Shown here piece by piece: positions 23,822 through 47,372 of a DNA stretch of 64,000 bases (position 1 is its first letter; each line of letters begins with the position of its first letter). The stretch covers positions 96,001-160,000 of the forward strand of contig CBDFLJ010000001.1 in assembly GCA_965248835.1 (NCBI GenBank). Direction: 5' to 3'. The DNA comes from Alphaproteobacteria bacterium. Lineage in GTDB: Bacteria; Pseudomonadota; Alphaproteobacteria; MPNO01. Below the pieces are notes generated by a model. It was not told the origin of the DNA. It made no database searches and saw only the letters and a list, made by a program, of their open reading frames with translations. The translations under genes and the position numbers were made by a program.

Positions 23822-23885
23822 CAAACGATCCTCCCTGCCTGGGCCCACCAGCCTAGCCGCATCTCGGGCCGATGTCTCGCGAAGA

Positions 23886-25094: not shown

Positions 25095-25232
25095 GGGCGG
25101 TCCCCTCTCTTCAGGTTCGCGCCGTTTTACCCCAGCCGCCCAGGATTGACATCCGGGTGTTGCCGGGCACCGGTCTTCCGATCCTCGGCCCGGCGCAGCT
25201 TATCGGTGGACGGGACGTGCGGAAACCGTGCC

Positions 25233-25871: not shown

Positions 25872-26029
25872 CCCCGTCGACTTGCCTCCGTCGCCTCACC
25901 ACAGATGGGGGCGCAAAGCCGCGAATGCGACCCCATCGATCATCAGATGTTCGTGAATGCGCCGCCGCCCTTCGCATGCACCCCGATCCCGGCTAGACTG
26001 CTCGGGCCGCGCCGGAGGAGGGACACGCC

Positions 26030-26278
26030 GTGCTGAACGCGGTCGCGATCGCTCTCGATCAGATCTACGTCCCGGTCAAGCGCCGTCAGACCCTCGACGA
26101 GGCCAAGGTCGAGGCGCTGGCCGGAGACATCATCGACAACGGGCTGAAGATCCCGATCCAGGTCCGCCGCGACAAGGAGCGCTACGTGCTGCTCGAAGGT
26201 CTGCACCGGCTGGAGGCCGCGCGCGCGTTGGGCGAGGTGACGATCGAGGCCCTCATCGTCAGCGTCCGTCAGCACTGA
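26030..26278 (+). CDS. Small ParB/sulfiredoxin N-terminal-domain protein
   Basis: GLKIPIQV...YVLLEGLHRLEAARALG; GGAGGAGG RBS. Confidence 0.82.
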   Translation: MLNAVAIALDQIYVPVKRRQTLDEAKVEALAGDIIDNGLKIPIQVRRDKERYVLLEGLHRLEAARALGEVTIEALIVSVRQH

Positions 26279-26371
26279 TCGAGGCGGCACCGGTCGTGGT
26301 TGCGCCGCGGCTTGCCGCGGCCCCGCCCCGCCGATAGCGTTCGCACCTGCGCGGGGTGTTGGGGGAAGGCG

Positions 26372-27233
26372 ATGCATTGGACCGAACGGCGGCGGCGGTT
26401 CCGCGCCCTGATCGCGGGCGAACGCTGCGTGCATCCGGGCTCGGTCTTCGATCCGATCTCGGCGCGGATCGCCGAGGATCTGGGCTTCGAGGCCGGCATG
26501 TTCGCAGGCTCGACCGCCTCGCTCGCCGTGCTGGGCGCGCCGGACCTGATCGTGCTCACCCTGGGCGAGTTCGCTCGGCAGGCCCACCGGATCTGCCGGG
26601 CCGGCGACCTCGCCCTCCTGGTCGACGCCGATCACGGCTACGGCAACGCGCTGAACGTCATGCGCACGGTCGACGCGCTGGAGACCGCCGGCGTCTGCGC
26701 GCTGACCATCGAGGATACCGACCTGCCCCGGCCGTTCGCCACCGATGCGCCACGGCTGATCCCGCTCGAGGAGGGGATCGGCAAGATGAAAGCCGCCCTC
26801 GCTGCGCGCCAGGACCCGGACCTGGTGATCGCCGCACGCCACCGGCGCGCTCACGATCACCGGGCTCGACGATGCCATCCGGCGGATCCGGGCCTACCAG
26901 GCGGCCGGTGTCGATGCGGTGTTCCTGACCGGTGTGCGCACGCCGGACCAGATCGAGGCGATTGCCGATGCGGTCGATATCCCGGTCTTCCTCGGGGCGG
27001 CGGGCCCGGACATCATGGACCTCGCCTATCTCGGCGCCCACGGGATCAGGATTTGCCTGCAGGGCCACCAGCCGTTCGTGGCCGCTGTCCAGGCGGTGCA
27101 TGCGACGCTCAAAGCGCTGCGCGAGGGCGCCGACCCGTCCGACCTCAAGGGCCTCGCAGCGCCCGAACTGATGAAATCCCTGACGCGAGAGTCCGACTAC
27201 CGGCGCTGGACCGCGGATTTCCTCGACGGCTAG
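26372..27233 (+). CDS. Isocitrate lyase/PEP mutase family protein (oxaloacetate decarboxylase-like), with a +1 frameshift at ~26840
   Basis: [26 protein letters not shown] and TIED motifs; extra C at 26840 moves the C-terminus to another frame. Confidence 0.85.
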
Positions 27234-27280
27234 CGCTTGTTCCAATCGACCGCGTCGGTCCGTTCCGTTCCGGTCGAGGT

Positions 27281-28255
27281 CTAGCGCCGCCAGATGCCGG
27301 CCTCCTTGTAGAATTTGACGGCGCCGGGGTGATAGGGCAGGTCGGGGCCGTGGTCCTTGGCCATGTTGGCCGACCTGTGGCTGCGCCACAGCGGGCTGGT
27401 CTCCTTCAGCGCGGCCTCGTTGGCGTACATCGCCTTGGCGACCTGGTAGACCACCTCGTCCTTCAGGCCGGCATGAGTCCAGATCGAATAGTCGTAGGAC
27501 AGCGCCTGGAGCGGCTTGTCGAAGCCGACCAGCTTCTTGTTGGGCGGGATCGGCTCGATCCACGACTTGGGATAGAGCTTGTTGAGCCGCGCCAGGGCCT
27601 CCGGCGAGGGATCGAGCGAGACGAAGCGGACCCCGCCGGAGATGCTGGCGTTGAGGTCCTTGACGATGGCCGAGCCGATCGCCGCGGTGGCGACCTGGAT
27701 CTTGCCCTGCTTCATCGCGTTCCAGTGCTGACGCAGCGCGACGGCGGGGACCGGCTTGATCTCGTCCTGGCCGATACCGGCATTGGCGAGAAAACACCGC
27801 ATCAGCAGACCGATCACCGGCGAGGCCTTGAAGCCCACCGGATAGGTCTTGCCCCTGATATCGTCCAGGGATTGGATGTTGGCGCTGCTTGCGGTCAGGA
27901 CGCCGACCTGGAACTTCATCATGCTGGCGACGAGCCTGAGGTTCTTGTGCGGCCGCTTGGAGATGCCGAAGCCTTCCACGCCCATCGTGTATTGCGGGAT
28001 GTTGGACAGCCCGAAATCAAGCTCGCCGGCGTTGACGATCGGAAAATACTGCTGAGTGCCGCCCATCGGCTGGGGCCGCATGCTCAGTGCGGAATTGCGG
28101 GTCACCACCTTGGCGATGGCGGCCGAGATCTGCGCAAGCGCACCGCCTTTGGTGGTCCCGATTCCGACGCTCTGAGCCTGCGCCGCGGCGGCGGCGATCA
28201 CCATCGCAGCCGCGCCCGCCATTGCTGCCAAATGTTTCATCGTCAGACGTTTCAT
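27281..28255 (-). CDS. TAXI family TRAP solute-binding protein
   Basis: Signal peptide, SVGIGT motif, C-terminal [14 protein letters not shown]. Confidence 0.9.
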
Positions 28256-28397
28256 AGAATGACTCCGTGTTGCGCCAATGCCCTTCGCACCCGTGTGCGT
28301 TGGTCGGTTTGCGGGCGAAGAGTAGCACCGATCGCCCCGGCCGATCGATCTTGGCGCATCGTTACCGCGTCCGGTCATCGATGATAGTCTCGCTCGC

Positions 28398-29543
28398 ATG
28401 GGCACGGGCAAACGCCACGCCGAGATCGCCGGAGCGGGCTTCGCGGGCTTGGTCGCCGGGATCGCGCTGTCCCGGCGCGGCTGGTCGGTGCGCATCCATG
28501 AACGCGCCCCGATGCTGCGGGCCTTCGGCGCCGGGATCTTCATCTGGGAGAACGGGCTCCGGGTGCTCAAGGCGATCGGCGCCTACGAGGATGTCATCGC
28601 CGGCGCGCACGAGAGCGTGGTCTACGAGGTCCGCGAGCGCTGGAAGGTGGTCGCGCGGACTTCGTTCTCGGCCGGCACGAACGACCGCATGCTGACCATG
28701 ACGCGCCAGTCGCTCTATTCAGCGATCCTGGCCGCGGCCGACCGTGAAGGGATCGAGGTGCGGACCGGTTCCGAAGTGGTCGGCGCCGAGCAGGCGGGCG
28801 TTCTGCTGACCGCCGATGGCGGGCGGTTCCAGGCCGACTTGGTGGTCGGGGCCGACGGCATCCGTTCCCGCGTGCGCGACTCGCTGGGCCTGCGGAAGGA
28901 GCATCACAAGGCCCCGCTCGGCCTGCTGCGGGTCCTGGCGCCGCGCTGTCTGGACGCGCTGGGCGAGGGGCCATGGAACTGGGTGATCGACATCTTCAAC
29001 CTGCCCAACCGCTCGTTGCGGATCCTGTACGTGCCGTGCAACGCCGAGGAGCTGTACCTGGCGATGATGGCGCGGGCCGATGATCCGGAGGCCACCGCCG
29101 TCCCGGTGCGGGCCGACATCTGGGTTCCCGCCTTCCCCGAGCTCGAACCGGCGATCCGCCGGGCCGCCGCCGACGGCCGCTACGATGCCTATGAGACCTG
29201 CAAGCTGACGCGCTGGGCGGCGGGCCGGGTCGCCGTGGTCGGCGATGCGGCGCACGCCATGGTGCCCTCGCTCGGCCAGGGCGCCGGGCTTGCGATGGCC
29301 AACGCGCTGGCGCTCGCCGTGGCGCTGGACGAGACCCCGGAGATCGGCGCTGCGCTCGCCCGCTGGGAATCCCGCGAGCGTCCGATGACCGAATACACCC
29401 AGGACTGGTCCGCCAAGGTCGCCCGCGACCGGATGCGGAACGGCGGCCGGATCTGGTCCGAAGACTCGATCGCGCCCGCACGGTCCATCCCCACCGGGAC
29501 CGAACACCTGCCCCGCATCCTCGATGAGAGGCCGCACGGGTAG
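28398..29543 (+). CDS. FAD-dependent monooxygenase, MHPCO-like (2-methyl-3-hydroxypyridine-5-carboxylate oxygenase family)
   Basis: AEIAGAGFAGL, LRAFGAGIFIWENGLRVL, VGADG, RILYVPCNAEELYL and GDAAHAM motifs. Confidence 0.8.
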   Translation: MGTGKRHAEIAGAGFAGLVAGIALSRRGWSVRIHERAPMLRAFGAGIFIWENGLRVLKAIGAYEDVIAGAHESVVYEVRERWKVVARTSFSAGTNDRMLTMTRQSLYSAILAAADREGIEVRTGSEVVGAEQAGVLLTADGGRFQADLVVGADGIRSRVRDSLGLRKEHHKAPLGLLRVLAPRCLDALGEGPWNWVIDIFNLPNRSLRILYVPCNAEELYLAMMARADDPEATAVPVRADIWVPAFPELEPAIRRAAADGRYDAYETCKLTRWAAGRVAVVGDAAHAMVPSLGQGAGLAMANALALAVALDETPEIGAALARWESRERPMTEYTQDWSAKVARDRMRNGGRIWSEDSIAPARSIPTGTEHLPRILDERPHG

Positions 29544-29608: not shown

Positions 29609-30795
29609 TAGTCACCCGAATCTAAAGTTGGTGGCATAAGTTTTGATCGACGCGGAGGCAGAAGCGTTTGACGGCGGCGAGGATGTCGTCGGCTGATTTG
29701 GTCCATTTGAAGGGCTTGGGGTCTTCGTTGTGTTTTTCGATGAAGGCGCGGATGTCGGCTTCGAGCTGCTTCGTCGAGGTATGAACGCCGCGTCGCAGTT
29801 GCTTGCGCGTCAATTCGGCGAACCAGCGCTCGACCTGGTTGATCCAGGAGGCCGAGGTCGGCGTGAAGTGGACATGATAGTGCGGCCGCCGCGCCAGCCA
29901 GGCTCTGATCGCGGCGGTCTTGTGGGTGGCGTAGTTGTCCATGACGATGTGGATGTCGAGATCCTCGGGGACGCGGGCGTCGATCTGCTTCAGAAAGTCG
30001 AGGAACTCCCTGGCCCGGTGGCGCCTGTAGCACTTGCCGATGACGAAGCCCGTGGCGACATCGAGGGCGGCGAACAGCGAGGTCGTCCCGTGCCGGACGT
30101 AATTGTACGTCCGCCGCTCGGCCATGCCCGGCATCATCGGCAACACCGGCTGTTCGCGGTCGAGGGCCTGGATCTGGCTCTTTTCATCGACACAGAGCAC
30201 CAGCGCGCGGTCCGGCGGCGACAGATAGAGCCCGACGATGTCGCGGACCTTGTCGACGAACAGCGGATCGCTCGACAGTTTGAAGGTCTGCGAGCGGTGC
30301 GGCTGCAACCCGAAGGCCGTCCAGATGCGCCGGATCGTCGTGTGCGACAGCCCGGTCTCCCGGGCCATCGAGCGGAGCGACCAATGGGTCGCATCCGCCG
30401 GCGTCGCGTTGAGCGTCCGTTCAATGACCTGTGCCACTTGATCATCCTCGATGGTCCGCGGCCGCCCCGGCCGAGGCTCATCCGACAGTCCGTCGATGCG
30501 GTCCTTCAGGAAGCGGCGGCGCCACTTGCCGACCGTGTGCTCGTGCACGCCGAGCTCGGCAGCGACCGCCTTGTTGGTCAGACCAGCCGCGCAACGCAGG
30601 ATCATGCGGCAGCGGTCCGACACCGCGCGCGCGATCTGGCGACGGCGGAGCTGACGCTCGAGATACGACCGTTCTGCATCGCTCAGAACCAAAGCCGCAA
30701 CCGGCCGGCCAACGCCACGCACCATCGCAAACACCTCCAAAGCCCAACGACGATGGCCATCATATAGTGCAATTTACTTCAGTTCCAGGTGACTA
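29609..30795 (-). mobile_element. IS630-family insertion sequence
   Basis: IRs TAGTCACCCGAATCTAAAGT / TAGTCACCTGGAACTGAAGT with CTAG at both ends. Confidence 0.93.
29622..30725 (-). CDS. IS630 transposase (intact, single ORF)
   Basis: CVDEKSQIQALDR, VMDNYATHK and HFTPTSASWINQVERWF motifs. Confidence 0.95.
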   Translation of the reverse strand: MVRGVGRPVAALVLSDAERSYLERQLRRRQIARAVSDRCRMILRCAAGLTNKAVAAELGVHEHTVGKWRRRFLKDRIDGLSDEPRPGRPRTIEDDQVAQVIERTLNATPADATHWSLRSMARETGLSHTTIRRIWTAFGLQPHRSQTFKLSSDPLFVDKVRDIVGLYLSPPDRALVLCVDEKSQIQALDREQPVLPMMPGMAERRTYNYVRHGTTSLFAALDVATGFVIGKCYRRHRAREFLDFLKQIDARVPEDLDIHIVMDNYATHKTAAIRAWLARRPHYHVHFTPTSASWINQVERWFAELTRKQLRRGVHTSTKQLEADIRAFIEKHNEDPKPFKWTKSADDILAAVKRFCLRVDQNLCHQL

Positions 30796-31971
30796 GTGCA
30801 CTGATGCATTGAAGGGATTCACAGGAGGTGTGGGCTGTGCGAATCTCGTTGGATGGCTCAAGATGTTTGCGTTCTGGTGAATGCCGAGGACCGCGTGCGG
30901 CTTGCCGCGATCTCCGGCGATCGAAGCCGCCCGCACAAGCACGTTCTGCGGGCCCGGATCATCCTTCATTCCGCCGATCGGCTGCCGGTTCAGGAGGTGG
31001 CGCGGCGGGCTGGCGTCAGCCGCCCGTCGGTGTGGCGCTGGCAACGCCGTTTCGCGGCGTTGGGCGTCGACGGGCTGTTGCGCGAGAAGTCGCGCGTTCC
31101 AGGCAAGGCGCCCGTGCCTGGCGAGACGGTGGAGCGGGTGGTGGCGCTGACCTGCTCGGAGCCGCCGGGCGAAGCTACGCACTGGACCGGCCGGGCAATG
31201 GCCGCGGCCGTGGGCATCGGGCTCAGCTCGGTCCAACGCATCTGGCGGGCGCACGGCTTGCAGCCCCATCGGGTGCGCACCTTCAAGCGCTCGAAGGACC
31301 CGGAGTTCGCCGCCAAGCTGCGCGACATCGTCGGGCTCTACATGGAGCCGCCGGCCCACGCGATCGTGCTGTCGATCGACGAAAGTGAGCATGCGAACGC
31401 CATTGGTCCGAGAGAGCATGCGAACCAGATCCAGGCGCTCGACCGCAGCCAGCCGGGGCTGCCGCTGAAGCCCGGCAAGTGCGGCACCATAACCCACGAT
31501 TACAAACGCCACGGCACCACAACCCTGTTCGCCGCGCTCAACGTGCTCGACGGCACGGTGTTCGGCCGCTGCATGCAGCGCCACCGGCACCAAGAGTTCC
31601 TCCGCTTCCTGGGCGCCATCGAGCGCGAGGTTCCGGCCGGCAAGCTCATCCACGTCGTGCTCGACAACGTCGCAACGCACAAGAAGCCCGAGGTCATGCG
31701 CTGGCTCACCCGGCGTCCCCGCTGGGTGTTCCACTTCACGCCGACCTCCGGCTCCTGGCTCAACGCCGTGGAGACCTTCTTCTCGGCGCTGACACGCCGC
31801 CGCCTGCGGCGCGGCGTGTTCCGCTCCGTCGCCGACCTGCAGGCCGCCATAAACCGCTACCTCAAGGAGCACAACAATGACCCCAACCCCTTCGTCTGGA
31901 CCAAATCCGCCGACAACATCCTCGCAAAAACCTGTCGCCTCCCTGAACCTTCTCAATGAATCGGTGCACTA
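30794..31971 (+). mobile_element. IS630-family insertion sequence sharing a CTAG with the previous element
   Basis: IRs TAGTGCACTGATGCATTGA / TAGTGCACCGATTCATTGA. Confidence 0.93.
30853..31959 (+). CDS. IS630 transposase with a 12-aa in-frame insertion after the first catalytic Asp
   Basis: LSIDE-[SEHANAIGPREHAN]-QIQALDR, LDNVATHK and HFTPTSGSWLNAVE motifs. Confidence 0.9.
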   Translation: MAQDVCVLVNAEDRVRLAAISGDRSRPHKHVLRARIILHSADRLPVQEVARRAGVSRPSVWRWQRRFAALGVDGLLREKSRVPGKAPVPGETVERVVALTCSEPPGEATHWTGRAMAAAVGIGLSSVQRIWRAHGLQPHRVRTFKRSKDPEFAAKLRDIVGLYMEPPAHAIVLSIDESEHANAIGPREHANQIQALDRSQPGLPLKPGKCGTITHDYKRHGTTTLFAALNVLDGTVFGRCMQRHRHQEFLRFLGAIEREVPAGKLIHVVLDNVATHKKPEVMRWLTRRPRWVFHFTPTSGSWLNAVETFFSALTRRRLRRGVFRSVADLQAAINRYLKEHNNDPNPFVWTKSADNILAKTCRLPEPSQ

Positions 31972-32002
31972 GGGTAAATTCCTTTGGCTCAAACGTGTAC
32001 AT

Positions 32003-32716
32003 TTGCATCGGGGAGAAAGGCTCTTGGTCGGACGCCGCGGGCGGACGAACGATTACCGCGAAATCCCCGCCTATACGGTCTGGGAGGTGGCGCATTACCT
32101 CACCGTGCCCGCGGCGACCATTCGCTATTGGTCGGTGGGTCGGGACGACTATGCGCCACTGATCGAAGTGCCCGAACGCTCCCCGACGCTTCTGTCGTTC
32201 CTCAATCTCGTGGAGCTTCACGTTCTTGCCGCCATCCGGCGCAAGCACGAGGTGAAGATGCCAAGCTTCCGAAGGGCGATCCAATACCTGGCGGAGCACG
32301 CGCGACGACCGGCCGACAAGCGGCATCCACTGATCAGCCGGGAGCTGGAAACGGACGACCTCGACCTGTTCACCGAGCAGTACGGGCAGCTGATCGCTAT
32401 CAGTCGCGAGGGTCAGACGGCCATGCGGAAAATCATCAGCGCGGCGCAGCGCCGCATTGACCGCGATCCGGAAGGCGTTCCGATCAAGCTATATCCGTTT
32501 ACCCGAACCGACATGGGTGAGGCGCCTGCAATGGTCGTCATCGACCCGGCGCTCTCCGCTGGACGGCCCGTCATCGCTGGCACCGGACTCGCCACCCAGC
32601 TCATTGCCGAGCGCTACAAGGCCGGTGAATCGGTCTGCGAATTGGCGCGGGACTATGCGCGCGAAAATGCGGAAATTGAAGAAGCGATCCGGTGTGAGCT
32701 CCAAGCCGCCGCTTGA
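32003..32716 (+). CDS. DUF433-domain antitoxin (VapB45-like), with no cognate toxin downstream
   Basis: PAYTVWEVAHYL, LSFLNLVE and IDPALSAGRPVIAGTG...AGES..ELARDY motifs; start uncertain. Confidence 0.85.
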   Translation: MHRGERLLVGRRGRTNDYREIPAYTVWEVAHYLTVPAATIRYWSVGRDDYAPLIEVPERSPTLLSFLNLVELHVLAAIRRKHEVKMPSFRRAIQYLAEHARRPADKRHPLISRELETDDLDLFTEQYGQLIAISREGQTAMRKIISAAQRRIDRDPEGVPIKLYPFTRTDMGEAPAMVVIDPALSAGRPVIAGTGLATQLIAERYKAGESVCELARDYARENAEIEEAIRCELQAAA

Positions 32717-33400
32717 AGCGCCGGACACCCTGGCAAGCGTTCCGGGACGGCTTGCCAGCCACCGACAAGCCAAGAAAAATGAAACAGGAGGAGAAATGAA
32801 AAGCCGATTAATCACCCCCCCACGCGCACGCGTGGAAACGGGGCGGTAGTGTCAGGTGATTACCCTCTCTGTGCATTCAGGCAGGCACTAATTAGCAATT
32901 TCAAAAATCGGCAGTGCAAATCGAGCAAGTGCGGTTAGATCGCGATGCCTTTTAATTTGCGATAGAGATCGAGTGCAAATCGGTCTGTCATTCCCGAAAT
33001 GAAGTCGGTTACTCGCAACCAAGATTCGTACCGGCTAGTTACGCCTAAAAATCGATCGGGGATAAGACGAGCCAGCATTTGGGACGGACCTGATAATTTG
33101 TTAACATCCCATCCTGCATGTTCTATGTCGACGACAACGGGAAGGAATAACTCCAAAAGGCCAGAAAGTATTTCCGAACCAGCTATCTCTATCACTGTCT
33201 TTCGTTCTGAGTGGTAAATTTTTTCTCTCGCAATTGATTTCGCCTCTTCGATATTCTTCTTGTACTGAGTATCGGCAATTAGCTCCTTTGTGTATGTCCC
33301 ACCTAATAATGCCTTTTCATTGTCTCGAAATGCCTCAGATGCCGAGTCGACGAGTTCGCCAATTGCGACAGCACGGAGCTTAGCTATAATTTCCGGCTTA

Positions 33401-34342
33401 GAGCCCTTCCGGAAAGTTCTTGAATCGGAAGAATCGTTTGTGATTCTGTGCTGGGCATCCGGTTTACAGGAGGAAGCCCGATGTGGACTGCGGAACACCG
33501 CCGCGCGGCGGAGCGTCGCGGACTTCGCTATCCGAGTGATCTGACCGACGCCGAGTGGGCGCTGATCGCGCCAATGATCCCGCCTGCCAAGCGCGGCGGG
33601 CGCAAGCGCTCAGTCGACGTGCGCGAGGTTCTGAACGGCATCTTCACCGTGCTGTCCACGGGCTGCCAGTGGAATGCACTGCCCAAGGATCTGCCGCCGA
33701 AGTCGACGGTGTACGACTATTTCGATCTATGGGAGTGGGATGGCACGCTGGAGCGGATCCATCATGAACTCTACGTCGCGGTGCGCGATGAGGAAGGACG
33801 CGAAGCCAGCCCGTCGGCCGCGGTCATCGACAGCCAGAGCGCCAAGGCGGCGCAAAAAGGGGGGCGTCGATCGACGATCAAGGCTTCGATGCGGGCAAGA
33901 AGGTCACCGGTCGCAAGCGGCACATCATGGTCGACACGCTCGGCCTGATGCTGGGCATCGTGGTGCATTCCGGCGACGTTCAGGATCGCGACGGTGCCCA
34001 CGAGCTCTTGCGCCGCACCCGGCGACGGTTCCCATTCATCGAGGTGATCTACGCCGACGGCGGCTATCAGGGACCGAAGATGGCCGCGACTGTCGCCAAG
34101 ACCGGGGGGTGGCGGCTCGAGATCGTCAAGCGCAACGACGTGCCCCGCTTCGAGGTGCTGCCAAAGCGTTGGATTGTCGAACGCACCTTCGCCTGGATCA
34201 GCCGCAACAGGCGCCTCGCTCGCGACTTCGAACGTCACGTTCGATCCGTCGTCGCCTTCATCCGACTCGCCATGATCCGCATCATGCTGCGCAGACTCGC
34301 CGCAACCCACTCACCATAGATTCAAACTTTCCGGATCGGCTC
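33401..34342 (+). mobile_element. IS5-family (IS1031-type) element, copy 1
   Basis: 942 bp; IRs GAGCCCTTCCGGAAAGTT / AACTTTCCGGATCGGCTC; TTA on both sides. Confidence 0.95.
33481..34319 (+). CDS. IS5 transposase expressed through a -1 frameshift
   Basis: YPSDLTDAEW and VIDSQS in orfA; A5G6 run at ~33854-33864; orf[20 protein letters not shown] and [10 protein letters not shown]. Confidence 0.9.
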
Positions 34343-34345
34343 TTA

Positions 34346-35287
34346 GAGCCCTTCCGGAAAGTTCTTGAATCGGAAGAATCGTTTGTGATTCTGTGCTGGG
34401 CATCCGGTTTACAGGAGGAAGCCCGATGTGGACTGCGGAACACCGCCGCGCGGCGGAGCGTCGCGGACTTCGCTATCCGAGTGATCTGACCGACGCCGAG
34501 TGGGCGCTGATCGCGCCAATGATCCCGCCTGCCAAGCGCGGCGGGCGCAAGCGCTCAGTCGACGTGCGCGAGGTTCTGAACGGCATCTTCACCGTGCTGT
34601 CCACGGGCTGCCAGTGGAATGCACTGCCCAAGGATCTGCCGCCGAAGTCGACGGTGTACGACTATTTCGATCTATGGGAGTGGGATGGCACGCTGGAGCG
34701 GATCCATCATGAACTCTACGTCGCGGTGCGCGATGAGGAAGGACGCGAAGCCAGCCCGTCGGCCGCGGTCATCGACAGCCAGAGCGCCAAGGCGGCGCAA
34801 AAAGGGGGGCGTCGATCGACGATCAAGGCTTCGATGCGGGCAAGAAGGTCACCGGTCGCAAGCGGCACATCATGGTCGACACGCTCGGCCTGATGCTGGG
34901 CATCGTGGTGCATTCCGGCGACGTTCAGGATCGCGACGGTGCCCACGAGCTCTGCGCCGCACCCGGCGACGGTTCCCATTCATCGAGGTGATCTACGCCG
35001 ACGGCGGCTATCAGGGACCGAAGATGGCCGCGACTGTCGTCAAGACCGGGGGTTGGCGGCTCGAGATCGTCAAGCGCAACGACGTGCCCCGCTTCGATTC
35101 GGCTGCCAAAGCGTTGGATTGTCGAACGCACCTTCGCCTGGATCAGCCGCAACAGGCGCCTCGCTCGCGACTTCGAACGTCACGTTCGATCCGTCGTCGC
35201 CTTCATCCGACTCGCCATGATCCGCATCATGCTGCGCAGACTCGCCGCAACCCACTCACCATAGATTCAAACTTTCCGGATCGGCTC
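34346..35287 (+). mobile_element. IS5-family (IS1031-type) element, tandem copy 2
   Basis: 942 bp near-identical direct copy, separated from copy 1 by TTA and followed by TTA. Confidence 0.93.
34426..35264 (+). pseudogene. IS5 transposase copy 2 with indels
   Basis: 1-bp deletion near 34953 (GAGCTCTGC vs GAGCTCTTGC) and altered segment near 35097 (CTTCGATTCGGCTG vs CTTCGAGGTGCTG). Confidence 0.75.
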
Positions 35288-36254
35288 TTAGACATATCAG
35301 ACGATGAATTTGTCTCTTTCGCAATAGGACACAACAAATTTTTTGCTTCTTCAAAAGTGAGATACCCAAGCGCAAAACCATCTTCTATGTCGATAATCGC
35401 GTAGCAAATGTCGTCCGCCGCCTCCACGAGAAACGCGAGCGGATGACGGCACCAGTAATGCAGTTGCCTGTTACGCTCTATTAGACCCACCCCGGAAGCA
35501 ACCTGTTCGAAATAGCCTCGTTCAGAGTCAAAGAAACCAATCTTCTTCCCGCCTACATACGAATCATTGGGGATCGGATGGATCACAGATGAGCGAGGGT
35601 ATTTCGCAAATGTACCAAGTACGGCGTAGGTCAATTGCAGACCACCAGACCAACGGCAATTTTCGAGCTGCGTCAGAATACGAAAGCCTTGAGCATTGCC
35701 TTCAAAATATTTTAAATCATTCTTTTCAACATCTTCCATATCGAGCCCAAATATCTCCGACGATCGCTCTGGAGAATTAAACCATCTGCGTATTGTATCT
35801 TCCCCACTATGGCCGAATGGAGGGTTGCCGATGTCGTGGGCGAGGCAGGCTGCTTGCACGATGTACCCGAACGTATCGGCGGTAACCTGGGGATCGTTCA
35901 GGCTATCCGCGATCTGCGAGCCAACCATCGTACCCAAAGACCTGCCAACCGATGCGACCTCGATACTGTGGGTGAGTCTCGTGTGAACGTGATCGTTGTC
36001 GGATAGAGGGTGTACCTGTGTCTTGTGAGCAAGCCGTCTAAACGCAGCGGAGAAGACTATGCGGTCGAGATCCTGTTGGAACGGGCTGCGCCCCGGCTGT
36101 GATCGGCATCTGGACGCATCTGGACGCTCTAGTCGTTGTTCCCCGAGTAAGGTTTTCCAATCCATCATTAGCTCCTCCCTACAGTCTGCCAGCATGTCTA
36201 TCTATATAAGTAGCCACCGCTGTCCAAGATAATCGTAAGTGTGCACAGGTTTGC

Positions 36255-36412
36255 ATCGTCGCCGTCGAGTGATTGAATCCCAAGGCAACCGAAGATCGCC
36301 CGATCCGTGAGCTTCGTCCCCCGCTGAATCCAACAGGATGGACAAATCCGATAGATGAATGATCAAGGACGCGCGAGAGGAATGTGCACGCCTTGCGAAT
36401 GAGGCCGCGTAG
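36255..36412 (+). pseudogene. Possible C-terminal relic of a GIY-YIG-type nuclease
   Basis: Fragments IVAVE*LNPKATEDRPIRELRPPLNPTGW and MIKDAREECARLANEAA*; E..IRELRPPLN resembles GIY-YIG C-termini. Confidence 0.35.
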
Positions 36413-36453
36413 AGAGCCGAGGGAATTGAGGACTTGCACACCGGCACGATCAC

Positions 36454-36720
36454 GGGGCCGCCTGTAGGCTGACGCCGAAAACGGCTGAAGACCTCGACGG
36501 AATCTATGAGTGCACGATCGTGAATTTTGGATTGGAGCAGGCGCAAGATTGCCTGAACGGTCTGCACCGGCGTTTCGGGGACCTCGCGGGGCTGACGGGC
36601 TCGTGCCGGGGTTGAGGCGTTACCCGTATCGACCCCACGCTGTGTTCTAGATGCCGGAGGACAAAGGTGTGCTGATCGCGCGCGTGCTGCACGAGAGCAT
36701 GGATGCGCCGAGGCATTTCG
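36454..36720 (+). pseudogene. RelE/ParE family toxin remnant
   Basis: CRLTPKTAEDLDGIYECTIVNFGLEQAQDCL, frameshift, then PGLRRYPYRPHAVF*MPEDKGVLIARVLHESMDAPRHF; start codon lost. Confidence 0.8.
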
Positions 36721-36822
36721 TTTCCACCGACCGATCGTCTCTGGCACGACCGCCGGAGGGCACGATGGCCACGAACTACTATCGCGGCAGTCCCGCGGTG
36801 GCGATGGTGCATTAAGGGCCAC

Positions 36823-36848
36823 GAACAACGGTTGTGAACAACGGTTGT
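36823..36848. repeat. Tandem 13-bp direct repeat with palindromic core
   Basis: GAACAACGGTTGT twice; core ACAAC-G-GTTGT. Confidence 0.8.
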
Positions 36849-37087
36849 AACGTCGGTTACATGCCCAATCGCAAGGAAACAGCGGCGCAACGCCGGACAA
36901 GTCGGATCGGCCGGAGGATTGGTGCGAACAGATCAGAGCCGACCTCGCCGCCCAAGTGGAAGCCGGGGGAACGCTCTACGGCGTCCGGCGGGACGGAGCC
37001 TATATCGCGCGGACCAGAAACGGAGACCGGGTTATCAGGCGGCCCGTCCACAAGACCGCCTGAATTGGCCTGCCGGCGCTTTCGGCC

Positions 37088-37623
37088 ATGCGACGCTTTT
37101 CGTTGTCGCCGGGCCGAACGGATGCGGCAAGTCGACCCTGTCGCGCACCACGTGGTTCGATAGGGTGGAGGTGATCGATCCCGATGCGATCGCACGCGGC
37201 CTGGTGCCCGGTACTCCCGACCAGGCGGCACGCGAAGCAGTGCGGCGACGCTGGCCGGCGATCGACGCGGGCAGGACGCTCGTGGTGGAAACCACAATCG
37301 CCGGCCATGGCATTCTCCACCTCATGGAGGCCGCGCGGACAGCCGGCTACCGGATCGAACTGCACTACGTGTCGGTGGATTCGCCCGACCTTGCACTCGA
37401 CCGCATCCGGAACCGGACGTGCGGCGGCGGTTTGTCCGGTCGCTGGACCGCCTGCCGGCCGCAATTGCACGGTCCGACGAGGCCCGTCTCTACGACAACA
37501 CCGACCCCGACCATCCCCACCGCGAGGTTGCGATCCTCACAACCGATACTACGGTGGACCGCGGAGCGTCTTCCGGGCTGGGTGATCGCGGCAATCGCAC
37601 GTATCGCGTCGCTGCGCCGCTGA
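37088..37623 (+). pseudogene. Zeta-toxin-like P-loop kinase/ATPase remnant
   Basis: LFVVAGPNGCGKST, VVETT and GYRIELHYV; the GGH segment is absent and VRRRFVRSL...LYDN continues in another frame. Confidence 0.8.
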
Positions 37624-37908
37624 TGCGGCCCCGGGATGCTCGACAGGCCCCGGCAATCAACACGGCGTCACGGTGCAAAACCTTCCATAAAATCTGAAGG
37701 TTGCAACGGATCAGATCGCAATTACGAGCGAATGTCGATCCCGATGGTTACGCGGGGGCGCGCGACCATCGGGCGGTTGTATATTTGGGCCGGCGGGACC
37801 ATGTTGGCTGTGGGATGGGCGCATCGAAACCTGAACGGCGGCACGCCGAACGCGATGCGACGGACGGGACCGGGCCAGGAGCTAACCGATAAGGAGGATT
37901 CCAAGACG

Positions 37909-38769
37909 ATGCGAAACACGGGCCTCATCGCCGCGGGCGCGCTTGCGGCAACCATGCTTGCCGGCTGCAACGGCTTTGAGCTGCGCAACGCCCAATCGCT
38001 CGCCGCGCCGGGCGAGACGTTCGACAGGAGCCTGTTTGCCGGCTACATAAGCTTGGCGACGTCCGAATATGAAGAGGGCGACTACCGCGATTCGGACAAA
38101 TTCGCCGTCCGTGCCGCGAAGGTTTCCGACGGCCGGATCGTTGCCCCGGAAGAGATCGCCATGCGCGCGTTGCCCAAGGACAAGCTGGGCGCGATGACCG
38201 ATGCGCGCAAACGCCTCGTCGCCGCCCTGGTTTCGGGCGCGCGGGAAAAGGCCCCGGCGACCGCGGCCAACGCCCAGATCCGGTTCGATTGCTGGATGCA
38301 GGAGCAGGAGGAGAACTTCCAGCCCGACCACATCGCGTACTGCCGGGATGGTTTCCTGTCCGCGATGGCCAGGATCGAAGCGGCAATGACGCCGCCGCCG
38401 AAGCCGGTCGCGGCCAAGCCGGCGCCGAAGCCGGCCAAGCAGGTTTTCGTCGTCTACTTCCCCTTCGACAGCGACCAGATCACGCCGGCGGCCAAGCGCC
38501 TCATCCTCGACGCCATCGATGCCGCGAAGACGATGGGCCCGACGCGGATCGCGGTCTTCGGCCATACCGACACCGCCGGTCCGAGACGCTACAACGCCGT
38601 GCTGGCCGAGGCGCGCATGCGGGTCGTTGCCAAGGAGCTCGCCAACGCCGGCTTCGCCGAGGGCCGCATGAACCTGGGCTCGTTCGGCGAGATGCTGCCG
38701 GCGGTGGCGACCGGCGACGGCGTGCGCTCGCAGAAGAACCGCCGCGCGGTGATCGAGATCTCCCGCTAG
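37909..38769 (+). CDS. OmpA-family lipoprotein
   Basis: LAGC lipobox, FDCWMQEQEEN, C-terminal VYFPFDS/GHTD/NRRAVI; AAGGAGG RBS. Confidence 0.9.
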   Translation: MRNTGLIAAGALAATMLAGCNGFELRNAQSLAAPGETFDRSLFAGYISLATSEYEEGDYRDSDKFAVRAAKVSDGRIVAPEEIAMRALPKDKLGAMTDARKRLVAALVSGAREKAPATAANAQIRFDCWMQEQEENFQPDHIAYCRDGFLSAMARIEAAMTPPPKPVAAKPAPKPAKQVFVVYFPFDSDQITPAAKRLILDAIDAAKTMGPTRIAVFGHTDTAGPRRYNAVLAEARMRVVAKELANAGFAEGRMNLGSFGEMLPAVATGDGVRSQKNRRAVIEISR

Positions 38770-38880
38770 CCGGCGCGCAGCGCCGCCAAGGAATTTGATG
38801 CGCCCGGTGCCGCATGGCGGTAAGCTTGGTCCTCGTCCCAGAGGCGACCAGACAATGCAAATCAAATCGAAGGGAGAAGT

Positions 38881-39873
38881 TTGGTGACACATCTCGGCAG
38901 AATTGCCGCCGCGGGCGCGGTGTTGGTCCTCGGCTTGGGCGGCGGCGCGGTCGCGACGAGCTCCGATGCGGCTGCTGCATGGAAGCCGCGCAAGCCGATC
39001 GAATTCGTCATCATGGCCGGCAAGGGCGGCGGTGCGGACCGCCTGGCACGGTTCATCCAGGGGATTGTCAAGAAGCACAACCTGTCCGCACTGCCGCTGG
39101 TGCCCAAGAACAAGGGCGGCGGCTCCGGCGCCGAGGCGCTGCGTTACCTCAAGGACCGGCAAGGCGACGCGCATGTCATCATGGCGACGCTGAACAGCTA
39201 CTACACCACCCCGCTGCGCAACCCGAGCCTCGGCGTGGACATCGAGCAGTTCACCCCGATCGCCCGGATGGCCGAGGATACCTTCCAGCTTTGGGTCCAC
39301 TCCGACAGCGATATCAAGTCTGTCGACGACTATGCCGCCGCCGTCAAGAAGGCGGGGATGGCGTGGAAGATGGGCGGCACCGGCAAGGGCCAGGAAGATT
39401 CGCTGGTCACCGCGATGCTCGAGAAGGCCTATGGCATCAAGGTCACCTACGTGCCCTTCAAGGGCGGCGGAACCGTCGCCAAGCAGCTTATCGGCAAGCA
39501 CATCGACTCCACGGTCAACAACCCGTCCGAGCAGATGGGCTTCTTCCAGGCCGGCAAGTCGCGCCCGCTTGCGACCTTCACGCCGAGCCGGTTGAAGGTC
39601 TTCCCCAACCTCCCGACCTTCCGCGAGCTCGGCCAGGACATGGTCTATTTCATGCAGCGTTCGGTGGTCGCCCCGGGCGGCATCCCCGACGAGGCGACGG
39701 CCTACTATGTCGCGCTGTTCGAGAAGGTCTATCAGTCGAAGGAATGGCAGGACTATCTGTCCAAGAAGGGGCTGCTGCCGGGCTGGCTGACCGGCGCGAA
39801 GCTGCAGGCGTATTTCAGCGCCGAGCGCGAGGCCCATCGCACGCTGCTGACCGCGATGGGAGAGATCAAATAG
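38881..39873 (+). CDS. tctC: Tripartite tricarboxylate transporter substrate-binding protein
   Basis: WKPRKPIEFVIMAGKGGGAD, NKGGGSG and YVPFKGGG motifs. Confidence 0.9.
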   Translation: MVTHLGRIAAAGAVLVLGLGGGAVATSSDAAAAWKPRKPIEFVIMAGKGGGADRLARFIQGIVKKHNLSALPLVPKNKGGGSGAEALRYLKDRQGDAHVIMATLNSYYTTPLRNPSLGVDIEQFTPIARMAEDTFQLWVHSDSDIKSVDDYAAAVKKAGMAWKMGGTGKGQEDSLVTAMLEKAYGIKVTYVPFKGGGTVAKQLIGKHIDSTVNNPSEQMGFFQAGKSRPLATFTPSRLKVFPNLPTFRELGQDMVYFMQRSVVAPGGIPDEATAYYVALFEKVYQSKEWQDYLSKKGLLPGWLTGAKLQAYFSAEREAHRTLLTAMGEIK

Positions 39874-39887
39874 TCTGAGCCGTCGGA

Positions 39888-39925
39888 CGGCGCCGATCCC
39901 GGACCCGGTTCCGGGATCGGCGCCG
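39888..39925 (+). repeat. Perfect 16-bp stem-loop between tctC and tctB
   Basis: CGGCGCCGATCCCGGA-6 nt-TCCGGGATCGGCGCCG. Confidence 0.8.
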
Positions 39926-39964
39926 GCGCATTCCCGCCAACGCTGAGCGCAGGAGACCGCCGCC

Positions 39965-40462
39965 ATGCGGCGTGCCGAGTTCGTCATGGCGGCGGTCATG
40001 GCGCTGTTCTCGCTCTATATCATGTGGAAAGCGACCGAGCTTCCGATCGGCTGGATCGAAGGCGCGGGCCCGGGCGGCGGCGCCTTCCCGTTCTGGCTGG
40101 CCGTCGGGATGCTGGTGTGCTGCGGCTGGATCATGCTGCGCTGGTTCCGCCGGCAGAGCGCGCCGGCGCGCTCCGCCGAGCCCTATATGGACGGCCGCGG
40201 GCTCAAGCTGTTCGCGGTCGGCGCCGGATCGCTGGTCGTCATGATCGGGCTGATCCATCTGGTCGGCGTCTATGTCGTGGTGCCGCTCTACCTGATCTTC
40301 TACATGCGCCTGCTCGGCCGGCACCGCTGGTCGGTGACCGTGCCGCTGGCGGTCGCGATGCCGGTTGCGACGTTCTTCTTTTTCGAGATCGCGCTCAAGA
40401 TCACCCTGCCCAAGGGCCTCACCGAGCCCGCGTTCTACCCGCTCTACGAGATGTTTTTCTGA
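39965..40462 (+). CDS. tctB: Tripartite tricarboxylate transporter TctB
   Basis: GPGGGAFPFW motif, TM helices, LKITLPKG. Confidence 0.9.
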   Translation: MRRAEFVMAAVMALFSLYIMWKATELPIGWIEGAGPGGGAFPFWLAVGMLVCCGWIMLRWFRRQSAPARSAEPYMDGRGLKLFAVGAGSLVVMIGLIHLVGVYVVVPLYLIFYMRLLGRHRWSVTVPLAVAMPVATFFFFEIALKITLPKGLTEPAFYPLYEMFF

Positions 40463-40474
40463 GGCGGCCGGCCG

Positions 40475-41992
40475 ATGGAGATCCTCAACCTCCTCCTCGA
40501 CGGGTTTGCCGTCGCCCTTCAGCCCCTCAATCTGGGGCTGATCGTCGCCGGCTGCATCGCCGGGCTGTTCATCGGCGCGATGCCCGGGCTGGGCTCGGTC
40601 AACGGCGTGGCGATCCTGCTGCCGATGACGTTCCTGGTGCCGCCGACCTCGGCGATGATCTTCCTGGGATCGCTCTATTACGGGGCGATGTATGGCGGGG
40701 CGATCTCCTCGATCATGCTGGGCATCCCCGGCGCCTCCACCGCGGTGGCGACCACGTTCGACGGCCGGCCGATGGCCCTTGCCGGGATGGCCGACAAGGC
40801 GCTGGTCGCCGCGGCGACCGCTTCGTTCACCGGCGGGACGATCTCGGTGATCCTGTTCACCTTGTTCGCACCGCCCTTGGCCGAAGTGGCGCTCGCCTTC
40901 GGCCCGCCGGAGGAGTTCGCGCTCTTGATGCTCGCGTTCGCCACCTTCATCGGGCTGGGCGGCGACGACATTCCCAAGACCTTCTTTTCGATCTTCGTCG
41001 GCCTGGTGCTGAGCGCCGTCGGGCTCGACGTGGTCAGCGGCCAGCCGCGGCTGATCTTTGGCGATATCACCGGCTTCTATCACGGCATCAACTTCCTGGT
41101 CCTGGCGATCGGGATCTACGGGATCGGCGAGATCCTGTGGACCGTCGAATCGACCAAGGGCGAGATGGTCGTCTCGCGCGTGGCGGTGAGCTTCCGCGGA
41201 ATCTTGCGCGCCCTGGCCGCCCTGCGCGGCAGCGTCCGCACCATGGTGATGGGCTCGCTGCTGGGCTATTTCGTCGGCATCCTGCCGGCGGCCGGCGCGA
41301 CGCCCGGCTCGCTGATGGCCTATGGCGTCGCCAAGACGATCTCCAAGGACCCGGAGTCCTTCGGCAAGGGCAATGTCGAGGGGGTCGTCGCACCCGAGGC
41401 GGCCAACAACGCCGCCAGCACCGGCTCGATGCTGCCCATGTTGACGCTCGGCATCCCCGGCTCGCCGACCACCGCGATCCTGTTGGGCGGCATGGTGATC
41501 TGGGGCCTCGAGCCCGGCCCGTTGCTGTTCGTCGAGCACAAGGAGTTCGTCTGGGGGCTGATCGCAAGCCTCTACGCCGCGAACCTGTTTGCCCTGCTGA
41601 TCAACATCGCCTTCATCCCGGCCTTCCTGATGGTGCTGAGGATGCCGTTTACGGTGCTGGCGCCGATCATCTTCATCCTGTGCGTCGTCGGCGGCTATGC
41701 GCCCACCCAGGATATGCACGACATCTGGCTGATGCTGATCTTCGGCGTCGTCGGCTACCTGATGCGCAAGCTCGACTACCCGCTGGCGCCGGTGGTGCTG
41801 GCGATCGTGCTGGGTCCGCTTGCCGAGGCCTCCTTGCGCCAGTCGCTGATCATGGCGCAGGGCTCGTTCGGCATCTTTTTCGACCGCCCGGTCTCTGCGA
41901 CCATCATGGTCGTAGCCATCGGCCTGTTCGTCTGGCCGCTGGTCGTCGTCGTCCGGGCCAGGGCGCGCGCGCGAGGGGGGCAGAAGAGATGA
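40475..41992 (+). CDS. tctA: Tripartite tricarboxylate transporter TctA
   Basis: GAMPGLG, YYGAMYGG, PEAANNA and LTLGIPGS motifs. Confidence 0.95.
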   Translation: MEILNLLLDGFAVALQPLNLGLIVAGCIAGLFIGAMPGLGSVNGVAILLPMTFLVPPTSAMIFLGSLYYGAMYGGAISSIMLGIPGASTAVATTFDGRPMALAGMADKALVAAATASFTGGTISVILFTLFAPPLAEVALAFGPPEEFALLMLAFATFIGLGGDDIPKTFFSIFVGLVLSAVGLDVVSGQPRLIFGDITGFYHGINFLVLAIGIYGIGEILWTVESTKGEMVVSRVAVSFRGILRALAALRGSVRTMVMGSLLGYFVGILPAAGATPGSLMAYGVAKTISKDPESFGKGNVEGVVAPEAANNAASTGSMLPMLTLGIPGSPTTAILLGGMVIWGLEPGPLLFVEHKEFVWGLIASLYAANLFALLINIAFIPAFLMVLRMPFTVLAPIIFILCVVGGYAPTQDMHDIWLMLIFGVVGYLMRKLDYPLAPVVLAIVLGPLAEASLRQSLIMAQGSFGIFFDRPVSATIMVVAIGLFVWPLVVVVRARARARGGQKR

Positions 41993-43023
41993 CCGGACCA
42001 TTGTTCGAACGGCTGGAGATCGGGCTCTACAGCGTCTCCTCGACCGCGGACAACCGCGCCGTTGCCGAGAAGGCCGAGGCGCGGGGCATCCGGCGGCTGT
42101 GGCTCGCCGAGGACCACCACAGCCGGGATATCTTCGTCCAGGCGACCGCGATCGCCGTGGCCACCGAGTCGATCGAAATCGGGCTCGGCATCGTCAATCC
42201 CTACACCCGGCACCCGGCGCAGATCGCCATGGCGGTGGCCGATCTGGAGGAGCTGGCCGGGCCGCGCTTCGTCCTGGGACTCGGCGCCGGCTGGTCGGCG
42301 ATCGCCGCCCATGGCGTGGCGAACCCACGCCCCATCACCGCGCTGAAGGAGACCGCCGCGATATGCCGGGGAATGCTGCGCGGCGAGCGCGTGGCCTTCG
42401 AGGGCGCGCTCTACCGCCTGCCCGCACCCGGTGCGCGGCTCACCTTCCCGCCGGCGCGGCCCGACGTGCCGCTCTATTTCGGCACCATGGGGCCGCGGAC
42501 CCTGAGGATGGCCACCCCGATCGCCGACGGCGTTTTCTTCAGCGTCTTCACCAGCCCGTCCTTCGCCGGGCATTGCCTCGACCATGCCCGCGCGGCGCTC
42601 GCCGGCACCGGCCGCACGATCGCCGACATCGATGTCGCCTGCTACATCATCTTCTCGGTCGACGAGGACGGCGATGCCGCGCGGCAAGCGGCCAAGCCGT
42701 TGATCGCCCACTATCTCAGACGGATCCCGGACATCATCCGCTTCGAATACGCCGGGCTCGACGTTTCGCGCATGCAGGCGCTGCAGGCCGGGCTCAAGGA
42801 AGCGTTCGCCGAGGACCGGTTCGGCCAGGCGGTCGATGCCCTGCCGGATGACATCGTGGCCGCGCTCGCGGTCGCCGGCACCCCGGATGAATGCATCGAA
42901 GGCCTCAAGCCTTACGCCGCCGCCGGGCTCAAGACCCCGGTGCTCTACCAGGTCCTCGGCCCGAACCGCATGGATTCGATCGATCTGATCGCAGACCGCA
43001 TCCGGCCGGCGCTGGTCGGCTGA
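41989..43023 (+). CDS. LLM-class (luciferase-like/Mer-like) oxidoreductase
   Basis: WLAEDHH, IVNPYTRHP, RFVLGLGAG and AVAGTPDEC motifs; ATGA overlap with tctA. Confidence 0.88.
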   Translation: MTGPLFERLEIGLYSVSSTADNRAVAEKAEARGIRRLWLAEDHHSRDIFVQATAIAVATESIEIGLGIVNPYTRHPAQIAMAVADLEELAGPRFVLGLGAGWSAIAAHGVANPRPITALKETAAICRGMLRGERVAFEGALYRLPAPGARLTFPPARPDVPLYFGTMGPRTLRMATPIADGVFFSVFTSPSFAGHCLDHARAALAGTGRTIADIDVACYIIFSVDEDGDAARQAAKPLIAHYLRRIPDIIRFEYAGLDVSRMQALQAGLKEAFAEDRFGQAVDALPDDIVAALAVAGTPDECIEGLKPYAAAGLKTPVLYQVLGPNRMDSIDLIADRIRPALVG

Positions 43024-43035
43024 GGCGCTGCCGGT

Positions 43036-44073
43036 CTATTCCGCCGCCGCCGCGCGCCGCGCAGGCGCGGCGGTGAGCACGCGGTCGTGCAGCGCGCGGC
43101 CGGCGATCTGGCCGGCGTCGGCGTTGACATCGATCTTCCACGGCTCCGGGCTGCCCAGCATCGATTGCTGCTGGGCCTCCAGAGCGATGAAGTCCTCGCC
43201 ATAAGCGGCGTCGACGGCGGCCTTGATCCGCCGGCTGGTTTCCGCGTCGTCCTTGCGGTAGTTGCGCGCGAACACCCAGGCATAGAGCGAGGTCGTCTCG
43301 TCGACCGGGGTCAGCGTGATCGCGAGCCGGGCCGCGATCGGGTCGACCCGGCTTCCTTGCGGCGCGCCGGTGCCGGTCGCCGCCACGCCGATGTCGAAGA
43401 AGGTGTGCGACGGCGGCCTGTAGGTGGTGATCTGCCAGCGGTCGCAGCCCGCGTTCCGGCCGATCGCCTCGGCCCAGAACGGTCCGGGGTCGACATCGAT
43501 CATCCAGCGCTCGACCGTCACGCTGTCCGCGCGCCTGGTTACGGTGATCGGGTTGTCGGTGATCGCCTCGGCACCCAGCGTGGAGGCGTGGACGTAAGGC
43601 AGGTGCGTCAGATCGAGCAGGTTGTCGATCGACAGCATGTAGTGGCACCTGACCTCGGCCGCGCCGCCGACCGCCGGCCAGTCCGGATCGCTGTTCCAGT
43701 GGTAGTCGGGGATCGCCGCCGGATCGGCCAGGGCAGGATCGCCCATCCAGATCCAGATGAACAGGTCGCGCTCGACCACCGGATAGGCCTTCACCGCTGC
43801 GCCGGGCGGGATCCTCGACTGCCCGGGCACCGCGACACAGGCTCCGGTCGCATCGAACTCGAGCCCGTGATAGCCGCATTGCAGGCGGTCCCCGATCAAC
43901 CGGCCGAGCGACAGCGGCAGACCGCGGTGGCAGCAGCGGTCGGTCAGCGCGGCCGGGGTGCCCGCGGCGGTGCGGAACAGGACGACCGGGTCCTTGCAGA
44001 TCGTCCGGGCGAGCAGGGCCCGGCCGAGATCCTCGGCGAGCGCGGCGGCGTACCAGGCATTGCGCAGAAACAT
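43036..44073 (-). CDS. Rieske oxygenase alpha subunit (VanA-like)
   Basis: MFLRNAWY start, CCHR...CGYHG and DNLLDLTHLPYVH motifs. Confidence 0.92.
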   Translation of the reverse strand: MFLRNAWYAAALAEDLGRALLARTICKDPVVLFRTAAGTPAALTDRCCHRGLPLSLGRLIGDRLQCGYHGLEFDATGACVAVPGQSRIPPGAAVKAYPVVERDLFIWIWMGDPALADPAAIPDYHWNSDPDWPAVGGAAEVRCHYMLSIDNLLDLTHLPYVHASTLGAEAITDNPITVTRRADSVTVERWMIDVDPGPFWAEAIGRNAGCDRWQITTYRPPSHTFFDIGVAATGTGAPQGSRVDPIAARLAITLTPVDETTSLYAWVFARNYRKDDAETSRRIKAAVDAAYGEDFIALEAQQQSMLGSPEPWKIDVNADAGQIAGRALHDRVLTAAPARRAAAAE

Positions 44074-44156
44074 CGGCGCTCTCCATACTGGGCGGTCGCG
44101 GCGATTCTGGCCCCGGAATCCGGGCGGGCGCAAGCTATTTGACGGGGAGGCGATCG

Positions 44157-47271: not shown

Positions 47272-47372
47272 CGCGGAATTCGCGCCACCGCGTGAGCGAC
47301 TACGAGTAGACGCGGAACAAGCGGGCGGGACTTGCGGGTCCCGCCCCGTCCATCGGCCTTGAAAGCCGGCCC

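Follow-up and report, generated by a model that had tools for sequence, protein, structure and literature searches.

Stand-alone dGTPases can defend against phages through depletion of dGTP (bioRxiv 10.1101/2021.04.26.441389, PMC13519002). The excerpt of Tal et al. also leaves open that further dGTPase families may act in defence (bioRxiv 10.1101/2021.04.26.441389). Nucleotide depletion has been described as toxic (PMC12265719), and the dGTPase of Leeuwenhoekiella blandensis, among the closest structurally characterised relatives of the gene considered here, has been described as a hexameric enzyme activated by dATP (PMC9257424). The locus compared with these systems lies in a 64,000-nt stretch (hereafter the window; positions 96,001 to 160,000 of contig CBDFLJ010000001.1, assembly GCA_965248835.1) of an alphaproteobacterial genome, where a dGTPase gene (32935-36168, minus strand; all coordinates are positions within the window) is broken after codon 293 by two tandem 942-bp insertion sequences (ISs) of the IS5 family. 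The best explanation overall is that the gene is a foreign second dGTPase, inactivated by the IS, whose intact form was likely an accessory phage defence; taken as a whole, this explanation is given about an even chance, and the defence role considered by itself is likewise evenly balanced.

The N-terminal part of the gene (35290-36168, minus strand, 293 codons) contains the HD domain and all catalytic motifs, and begins with MMDW at 36168, 4 nt downstream of a Shine-Dalgarno-like GGAGGAG read from the letters (36172-36178, minus strand); close homologues start likewise, with MMDW or MDW. The C-terminal part (32938-33399, minus strand, 154 codons, stop codon at 32935-32937) contains the HD_assoc domain. 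Between the two lie, in order, a first copy of the target repeat TTA within a CTTAG site (33398-33400), IS copy 1 (33401-34342, plus strand, 942 bp), a TTA between the IS copies (34343-34345), IS copy 2 (34346-35287, plus strand, 942 bp), and a third TTA (35288-35290). Scripted removal of both ISs and two of the TTAs yields an open frame of 1344 nt encoding 447 amino acids (aa) and containing SSDMSKPEIIAKL, in which SSDMS runs straight into KPEIIAKL, reproducing the in-frame reconstruction claimed in the initial annotation. In its present state, the N-terminal frame continues into the IS to give an open reading frame of 312-322 aa with a 19-aa IS-encoded tail. The interruption cuts the C-terminal 154 residues from the frame, comprising the HD_assoc domain and seven conserved columns, and the truncated product would be expected to be inactive.

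The joined protein keeps all 69 of the columns at which 277 relatives show conservation of 97% or more, including H67, H111-D112, H120, E123, and D252-D253, the metal ligands and H..E dyad, whose roles are taken from the description of CloA and Dgt in the excerpt of PMC12265719. The initial annotation had described the HD motifs as intact, which they are, and the gene as free of any other lesion, which is correct for the frame and the conserved columns, but the window's gene also has a private three-residue insertion (S19-R20-C21) that is present in none of 25 close full-length homologues (seven of which are 81-85% identical to the window's gene) and two conservative substitutions (I95V and G299A) at columns invariant in the same 25 sequences. 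The insertion corresponds to a 10-bp tandem repeat (GCATCTGGAC twice; 36106-36125, codons 17-24) with a net gain of 9 nt, which, judged from the letters, may represent either a 10-bp duplication followed by a frame-restoring loss of 1 nt just downstream, or an assembly error. Contigs of runs X4 and X6, two of the four sequencing runs that hold the gene, contain 9 nt fewer at 36106-36125 and are otherwise identical; the extra 9 nt could therefore be either a polymorphism or an error of the assembly consensus. With an open frame and every conserved residue still in place, the break looks recent, in agreement with what had been proposed.

Several models and structures agree in placing the gene within the dGTPase superfamily. 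The HD (PF01966, 31 bits) and HD_assoc (PF13286, 36 bits) domains were recovered on the two gene halves, TIGR01353 scored 279 bits on the N-terminal part alone (cut-off 152), the metal-binding H...HD...D residues and the H..E dyad are present, and the broad dGTPase model of PADLOC scored 202 and 35 bits on the two halves. The best model for both halves is NF002205/PRK01096, with 373.6 bits over profile positions 1-279 of 444 and 97.0 bits over positions 295-442 of 444; the rough sum of 470.6 bits can be set beside the whole-protein cut-off of 439, bearing in mind that the halves were scored separately. Amongst solved structures searched with phmmer, the strongest match was 2pgs from Pseudomonas syringae (291 bits), followed by the L. 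blandensis dGTPase (3bg2 and 7tu0-7tu8, 231-249 bits; 7tu0, 246 bits), CloA of the Clover system (9p8s-9p8v, 158-166 bits over residues 2-275), E. coli Dgt (122 bits), and the octameric Vibrio Vdg (9vwa/9vwc, 56-60 bits). The intact product would thus be an HD-domain, SAMHD1-like enzyme of the NF002205/PRK01096 type, predicted to cleave dGTP into deoxyguanosine and triphosphate.

The composition and distribution of the gene differ from those of its surroundings. The guanine-plus-cytosine (GC) content is 0.446 in the C-terminal part and 0.506 in the N-terminal part, compared with 0.632 in the IS and 0.672 in the window, and reaches 0.49 at the third codon positions of the joined gene, bearing out the description of the gene as richer in AT than its background. 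A resident dGTPase-family gene is located on contig 2 (412 aa, 527 bits on NF002328), so that the search for a separate housekeeping dgt, suggested at the outset as a check, had a positive outcome. This resident gene occurs in 27 of 40 relatives, 15 of 16 genera, and both genus-mates (85% and 81% identity), a distribution as expected of a housekeeping gene passed on vertically. Within the same family, a PRK01286-type housekeeping dgt was found in none of the 12 genomes of genus g6 (G007-G019) at E <= 1e-40, and one of these genomes (G011) encodes a 494-aa dGTPase of another type instead.

The broken gene was found in neither of the two genus-mates. Within the family, one of 19 genomes matches it, through a 41%-identical gene of another type, and within the class 25 of 400 other genomes do so, at identities of at most 61% (a count that includes the unpublished genome G080). 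The gene lies on an island of ~8 kb (29625-37623; GC content 0.53-0.63), and the stretch at 29.6-37.8 kb has no counterpart in the complete genome of genus-mate G002. The island coincides with a break in synteny, the left flank (23100-29500) being found at ~1.81 and 2.55 Mb of G002 and the right flank (37900-52000) at ~1.39 Mb. Horizontal acquisition of the dGTPase gene, as originally proposed, is therefore well supported, because the gene is low in GC and patchy in relatives, the island is missing from G002, and the host has a separate resident dgt. Viral contigs contained just four relatives, at identities of at most 49%, and thus give no sign of carriage by phages. Among the matches listed, close loci were found once in the genome scan (L009, 78% identity) and once in the metagenome scan (L089, 75%).

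The interrupting element encodes a transposase with DUF4096 and DDE_Tnp_1 domains in two frames; as read from the sequence, a -1 shift on a slippery run (CAAAAAGGGGGG, 33853-33864) links the two. The IS5-type model NF033580 scored 123.6 and 109.9 bits on the two frames (cut-off 110), the 18-bp terminal inverted repeats agree with each other at 16 of their 18 positions, and the combination of a DDE transposase, inverted repeats, a short target duplication, and several copies is that of the IS5 family; the subgroup may be IS427/IS1031-like. The genome holds 12 full-length copies at identities of at least 99.3%, in addition to fragments and relatives at 71-87% identity. All 12 full copies are preceded by C, 11 are followed by G, and 10 are flanked by matching TNA repeats, which defines the target as C-TNA-G, duplicated over 3 bp upon insertion. 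Because the element ends in GAGCC...GGCTC, every insertion recreates CTNAG at both of its junctions. A multiplying element of this kind would have inactivated the dGTPase gene at such a site and, since CTNAG is rebuilt at the IS ends, the second copy would most likely have landed in one of the flanking TTAs, generating the arrangement IS-TTA-IS. The genome contains 5,106 CTNAG sites, and the probability of a chance hit on an IS junction is, by rough estimate, a few per cent, so that the element may to some degree prefer IS ends, or the dimer may have formed in another way.

The two copies in the window are not equivalent. Three further copies in the genome match copy 1 at 100% identity, whereas copy 2 departs from it at 7 positions; among these differences are two indels, -1 behind 34952 and +1 at 35098, that together displace ~48 codons of the DDE domain of the transposase. 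These private variants occur in no other copy in the genome, and an origin by conversion from the IS relatives diverged to 82-87% was rejected, as the variants are unmatched there. Barring assembly errors as the source of these differences, copy 2 is probably older and has become defective; the two IS5 copies of the initial annotation are thus confirmed as a tandem pair of IS5-family elements, though not an identical one. Elsewhere in the genome, two copies on contig 2 (C2:852647-853588 and C2:794504-795445) have unmatched flanking triplets (TAA/TTA and TAA/TCA), which suggests recombination between IS copies with rearrangement. A megablast-level search of the plasmid collection returned no match to the IS. 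The word depth of IS contigs was 27-50 times that of the gene (34310-35289 versus 35290-36400), above the expectation for 12 copies, and the IS may therefore also occur in other genomes of the sample, with the caveat that contig depths are poor measures.

Reads could be consulted in the form of contigs, which collapse repeated copies and drop rare variants and therefore cannot show absence. The gene is present in four runs, all from one sample, with 0.76-0.92 of the sampled words recovered. In run X4, a contig (35263-35879) passes from 25 nt of the right end of the IS through TTA into the gene with zero differences, and runs X4, X5, and X7 each contain a contig linking the C-terminal flank to the left end of the IS. 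With both outer gene-IS junctions present, the interrupted allele is real in these read data, though the reads may share the sample of the assembly. An empty-site allele, in which the N-terminal part would join the C-terminal part directly, was present in none of the contigs and loose ends listed over 34310-36400, a negative that carries the limit just stated, and the proposed polymorphism of the population consequently received no backing from the four runs. One contig in X6 and X7, with 5-6 differences over 35316-35457 and unlike letters further leftward, was considered as an empty site and is instead read as a different, uninterrupted homologue from another organism in the sample. Precise excision of ISs is host-mediated and very rare. 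Restoration of the gene within the cell would require a 1,890-bp deletion between the 3-bp outer TTA repeats and should be very rare, although recombination might instead first reduce the tandem to one IS, which would then have to be lost precisely. The idea that excision could easily restore the gene is therefore not upheld: the gene is reconstitutable on paper and is not a likely switch.

The phylogenetic check suggested by the initial annotation was carried out with FastTree (286 rows) and IQ-TREE in quick mode (52 rows), and gave a partial answer. With 95-98% support, the window's gene groups with metagenomic homologues of 75-85% identity. This clade is enclosed in a larger group, in which the few members with names are Rhodospirillaceae, Rhodospirillales, and Alphaproteobacteria metagenome-assembled genomes together with genomes of the same class, but the backbone of the family is poorly supported and its branching order unsettled. 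Genomic context is informative for some of these relatives. In L089 (75% identity, within the 10-row clade of the gene at 95% support), a low-GC dGTPase gene in a contig of 0.69 GC has as its immediate downstream neighbours a class II pAgo gene (733 bits) and the helical restriction endonuclease partner of the latter (383 bits). L089 also has thymidylate-kinase-like and radical-SAM/B12-binding genes (2878-5000) immediately upstream of these three genes, and they may belong to the same island. In L090 (61%), a 0.45-GC gene lies among neighbours of higher GC, two genes away from a TIR-transmembrane gene (81 bits), and in L085 (50%) the gene is near a SoFic gene. Three of the six plasmid contexts examined (from 43 plasmid records) are defence-like, one with Druantia DruA and toxins, one with an adjacent anti-phage dCTP deaminase, and one with WYL, RecB-like, ThiF-multiubiquitin, and TIR genes. 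Six close relatives are broken elsewhere, with unrelated heads or tails (P0005, P0014, P0058, P0080, P0087, and the pair P0122 and P0124 on one contig); these are 78-96% identical to P0002, and the break in P0005 lies three codons before that in the window. They may be independent pseudogenes, or some of them may reflect assembly frameshifts.

In the best explanation, the gene arrived on a low-GC island rich in transposase genes and toxin-antitoxin remnants, in a host that retains its vertically inherited dgt; the intact gene most likely would have served as an accessory nucleotide-depletion defence against phages, and its loss may have been neutral, or favoured if an extra dGTPase is costly. 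Quite possible as well, though not what we would call probable, is that the gene was a redundant passenger, that is, an ordinary dGTPase of the deoxynucleoside triphosphate pool from an alphaproteobacterium of moderate GC, carried in on the island, never defensive, duplicating the resident dgt, and now decaying neutrally. Several observations weigh against a defence role, and some of them favour such a passenger. The type is the sole TIGR01353 gene in 19 of 24 genomes of the class that have it (G080 left out), and its nearest genome-borne relatives, in G135 and G299 (60-61% identity), are at host GC and in conserved synteny without PADLOC neighbours; such neighbours were likewise absent from three chromosomal contexts (L196, L198, and L199). 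Characterised relatives are discussed as pool regulators in the excerpts available (PMC9257424; Caulobacter Dgt, PMC12186491). The anti-phage models NF041026 (162.4 and 25.3 bits, cut-off 400) and NF003701 (146 and 20 bits, cut-off 383) both scored below their cut-offs, and the defensive Shewanella enzyme 9p8w matched with 85 bits over residues 22-127 only. In the window, none of seven neighbours tested had a convincing PADLOC match (two had P-loop-only matches, E ~1e-3), and the context of close relatives comes from two loci (L089 and L090). According to the excerpt of Tal et al., Sp-dGTPase homologues of at least 45% identity are next to defence genes in 53% of cases, versus 10% for more distant ones (bioRxiv 10.1101/2021.04.26.441389). 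What speaks against a mere passenger is that L089 and L090 are low-GC genes amid higher-GC neighbours and near defence genes, that the clade is patchy and repeatedly broken, and that plasmid-borne members of the family occur in defence regions in half of the contexts examined. The label of candidate anti-phage gene given by the initial annotation is accordingly retained for the pAgo, TIR, and plasmid contexts of its relatives, and is weakened by the scores on the curated models, the frequent sole copies, and the gene's own neighbours.

Two further explanations concern the partners and the anatomy of the gene. It is very improbable that the gene is the remnant of a Clover-type system, namely a CloA-like dNTPase whose partner nucleotidyltransferase was lost: although CloA (9p8s-9p8v) is the nearest experimentally defensive relative at 158-166 bits (PMC12265719, as excerpted), no nucleotidyltransferase gene was found beside the dGTPase gene in the window, L089, L090, or the six plasmid copies, and the matches to 2pgs and L. 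blandensis are much stronger (246-291 bits). Part of the locus may also be an artefact of assembly, in which case the tandem arrangement, the variants of copy 2, and the additional 9 nt would be consensus errors of long reads and the true locus would contain a single IS. The variants of copy 2, indels among them, occur nowhere else in the genome, the read contigs show only the letters of the master IS, the nearest reads disagree with the window over the 9 nt near the N-terminus (two runs lack them), and neither the IS-TTA-IS joint nor the copy 2 variants appear in any listed contig, all of which count against the anatomy described above. Set against this, such contigs collapse exactly these repeats, so that absence is not demonstrated, and both outer gene-IS junctions are present in the runs, meaning that the gene is interrupted there regardless; an artefact of this kind is considered unlikely. 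Returning to the defence explanation, a broader version of it would add the 75-85% clade to Sp-dGTPase, CloA, and Vdg as a fourth lineage of mobile anti-phage dGTPases that has so far gone unrecognised. Recruited from housekeeping enzymes of the PRK01096 type, this lineage would enter high-GC hosts as a low-GC cassette that is sometimes placed by pAgo, and would be repeatedly switched off by ISs or frameshifts as costly beside a resident dgt. This extension is tenable but doubtful.

The remaining genes of the island are of other kinds. At its left edge, two IS630-type (DDE_3) transposase genes stand side by side in divergent orientation (29625-30740, minus strand; 30853-31956, plus strand), followed by a DUF433/helix-turn-helix gene (32003-32716, plus strand). 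On the other side of the dGTPase gene lie a toxin pseudogene (~36437-36725, plus strand), which we take, from a motif judged by eye, to be ParE/RelE-like, and a zeta-toxin/AAA_33-like gene (36919-37623, plus strand). The pseudogene has a frameshift, its N-terminal part and C-terminal part (ending in VLIARVLHESMD) lying in different frames with an in-frame TAG between them. As regards defence-type genes, the surroundings of the dGTPase gene hold toxin-antitoxin remnants only. Further along the window, long overlapping open reading frames at 38.8-42 kb looked odd and proved to be TctC/TctA transporter genes.

If the gene was indeed defensive, the curated models for anti-phage dGTPases miss a mobile branch of the PRK01096 type, and the locus would provide a natural example of the gain, and the IS-mediated loss, of a nucleotide-depletion defence in a host with a housekeeping dgt. 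If it was not, what remains is an unremarkable pseudogene, derived from a foreign gene that was redundant. The IS, with its 12 near-identical copies, clear CTNAG target, and target-recreating ends, explains the tandem pair and marks a currently active element. Both an accessory dGTPase and the knock-out of an accessory gene by an IS are of known kinds, and the event itself is ordinary gene decay.

Compared with described systems, the gene is most similar to the NF002205/PRK01096 enzymes (2PGS; Leeuwenhoekiella blandensis, 7TU0-7TU8), with which it has in common a length of ~444 aa, the HD motif, and the H..E dyad, but unlike them the copy in the window is an extra, foreign, and broken gene; chromosomal genes of Pseudomonas and Halomonas are ~50% identical to it. 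The Sp-dGTPase family (Tal et al.; NF041026/NF003701) belongs to the same superfamily, has the same chemistry, and is likewise encoded by a stand-alone gene, yet the window's gene falls outside its clade, far below the curated cut-offs. CloA and Vdg are dGTPases for which anti-phage activity has been shown experimentally according to the excerpts (PMC12265719, PMC13519002), and the window's gene differs from Clover in that no CloB partner was found among the scanned neighbours. With the IS5-family TNA elements (NF033580 type), the interrupting element shares the 942-bp two-frame DDE organisation, the inverted repeats matching at 16 of 18 positions, and the 3-bp TNA duplication. The closest parallel for the interruption itself is the insertion of ISs into cas genes (PMC10359306), where an active IS likewise disrupts a costly or dispensable accessory gene; here, by comparison, the defence role of the target is that of a candidate, and the insertion takes the form of a tandem IS pair sharing a 3-bp target repeat.

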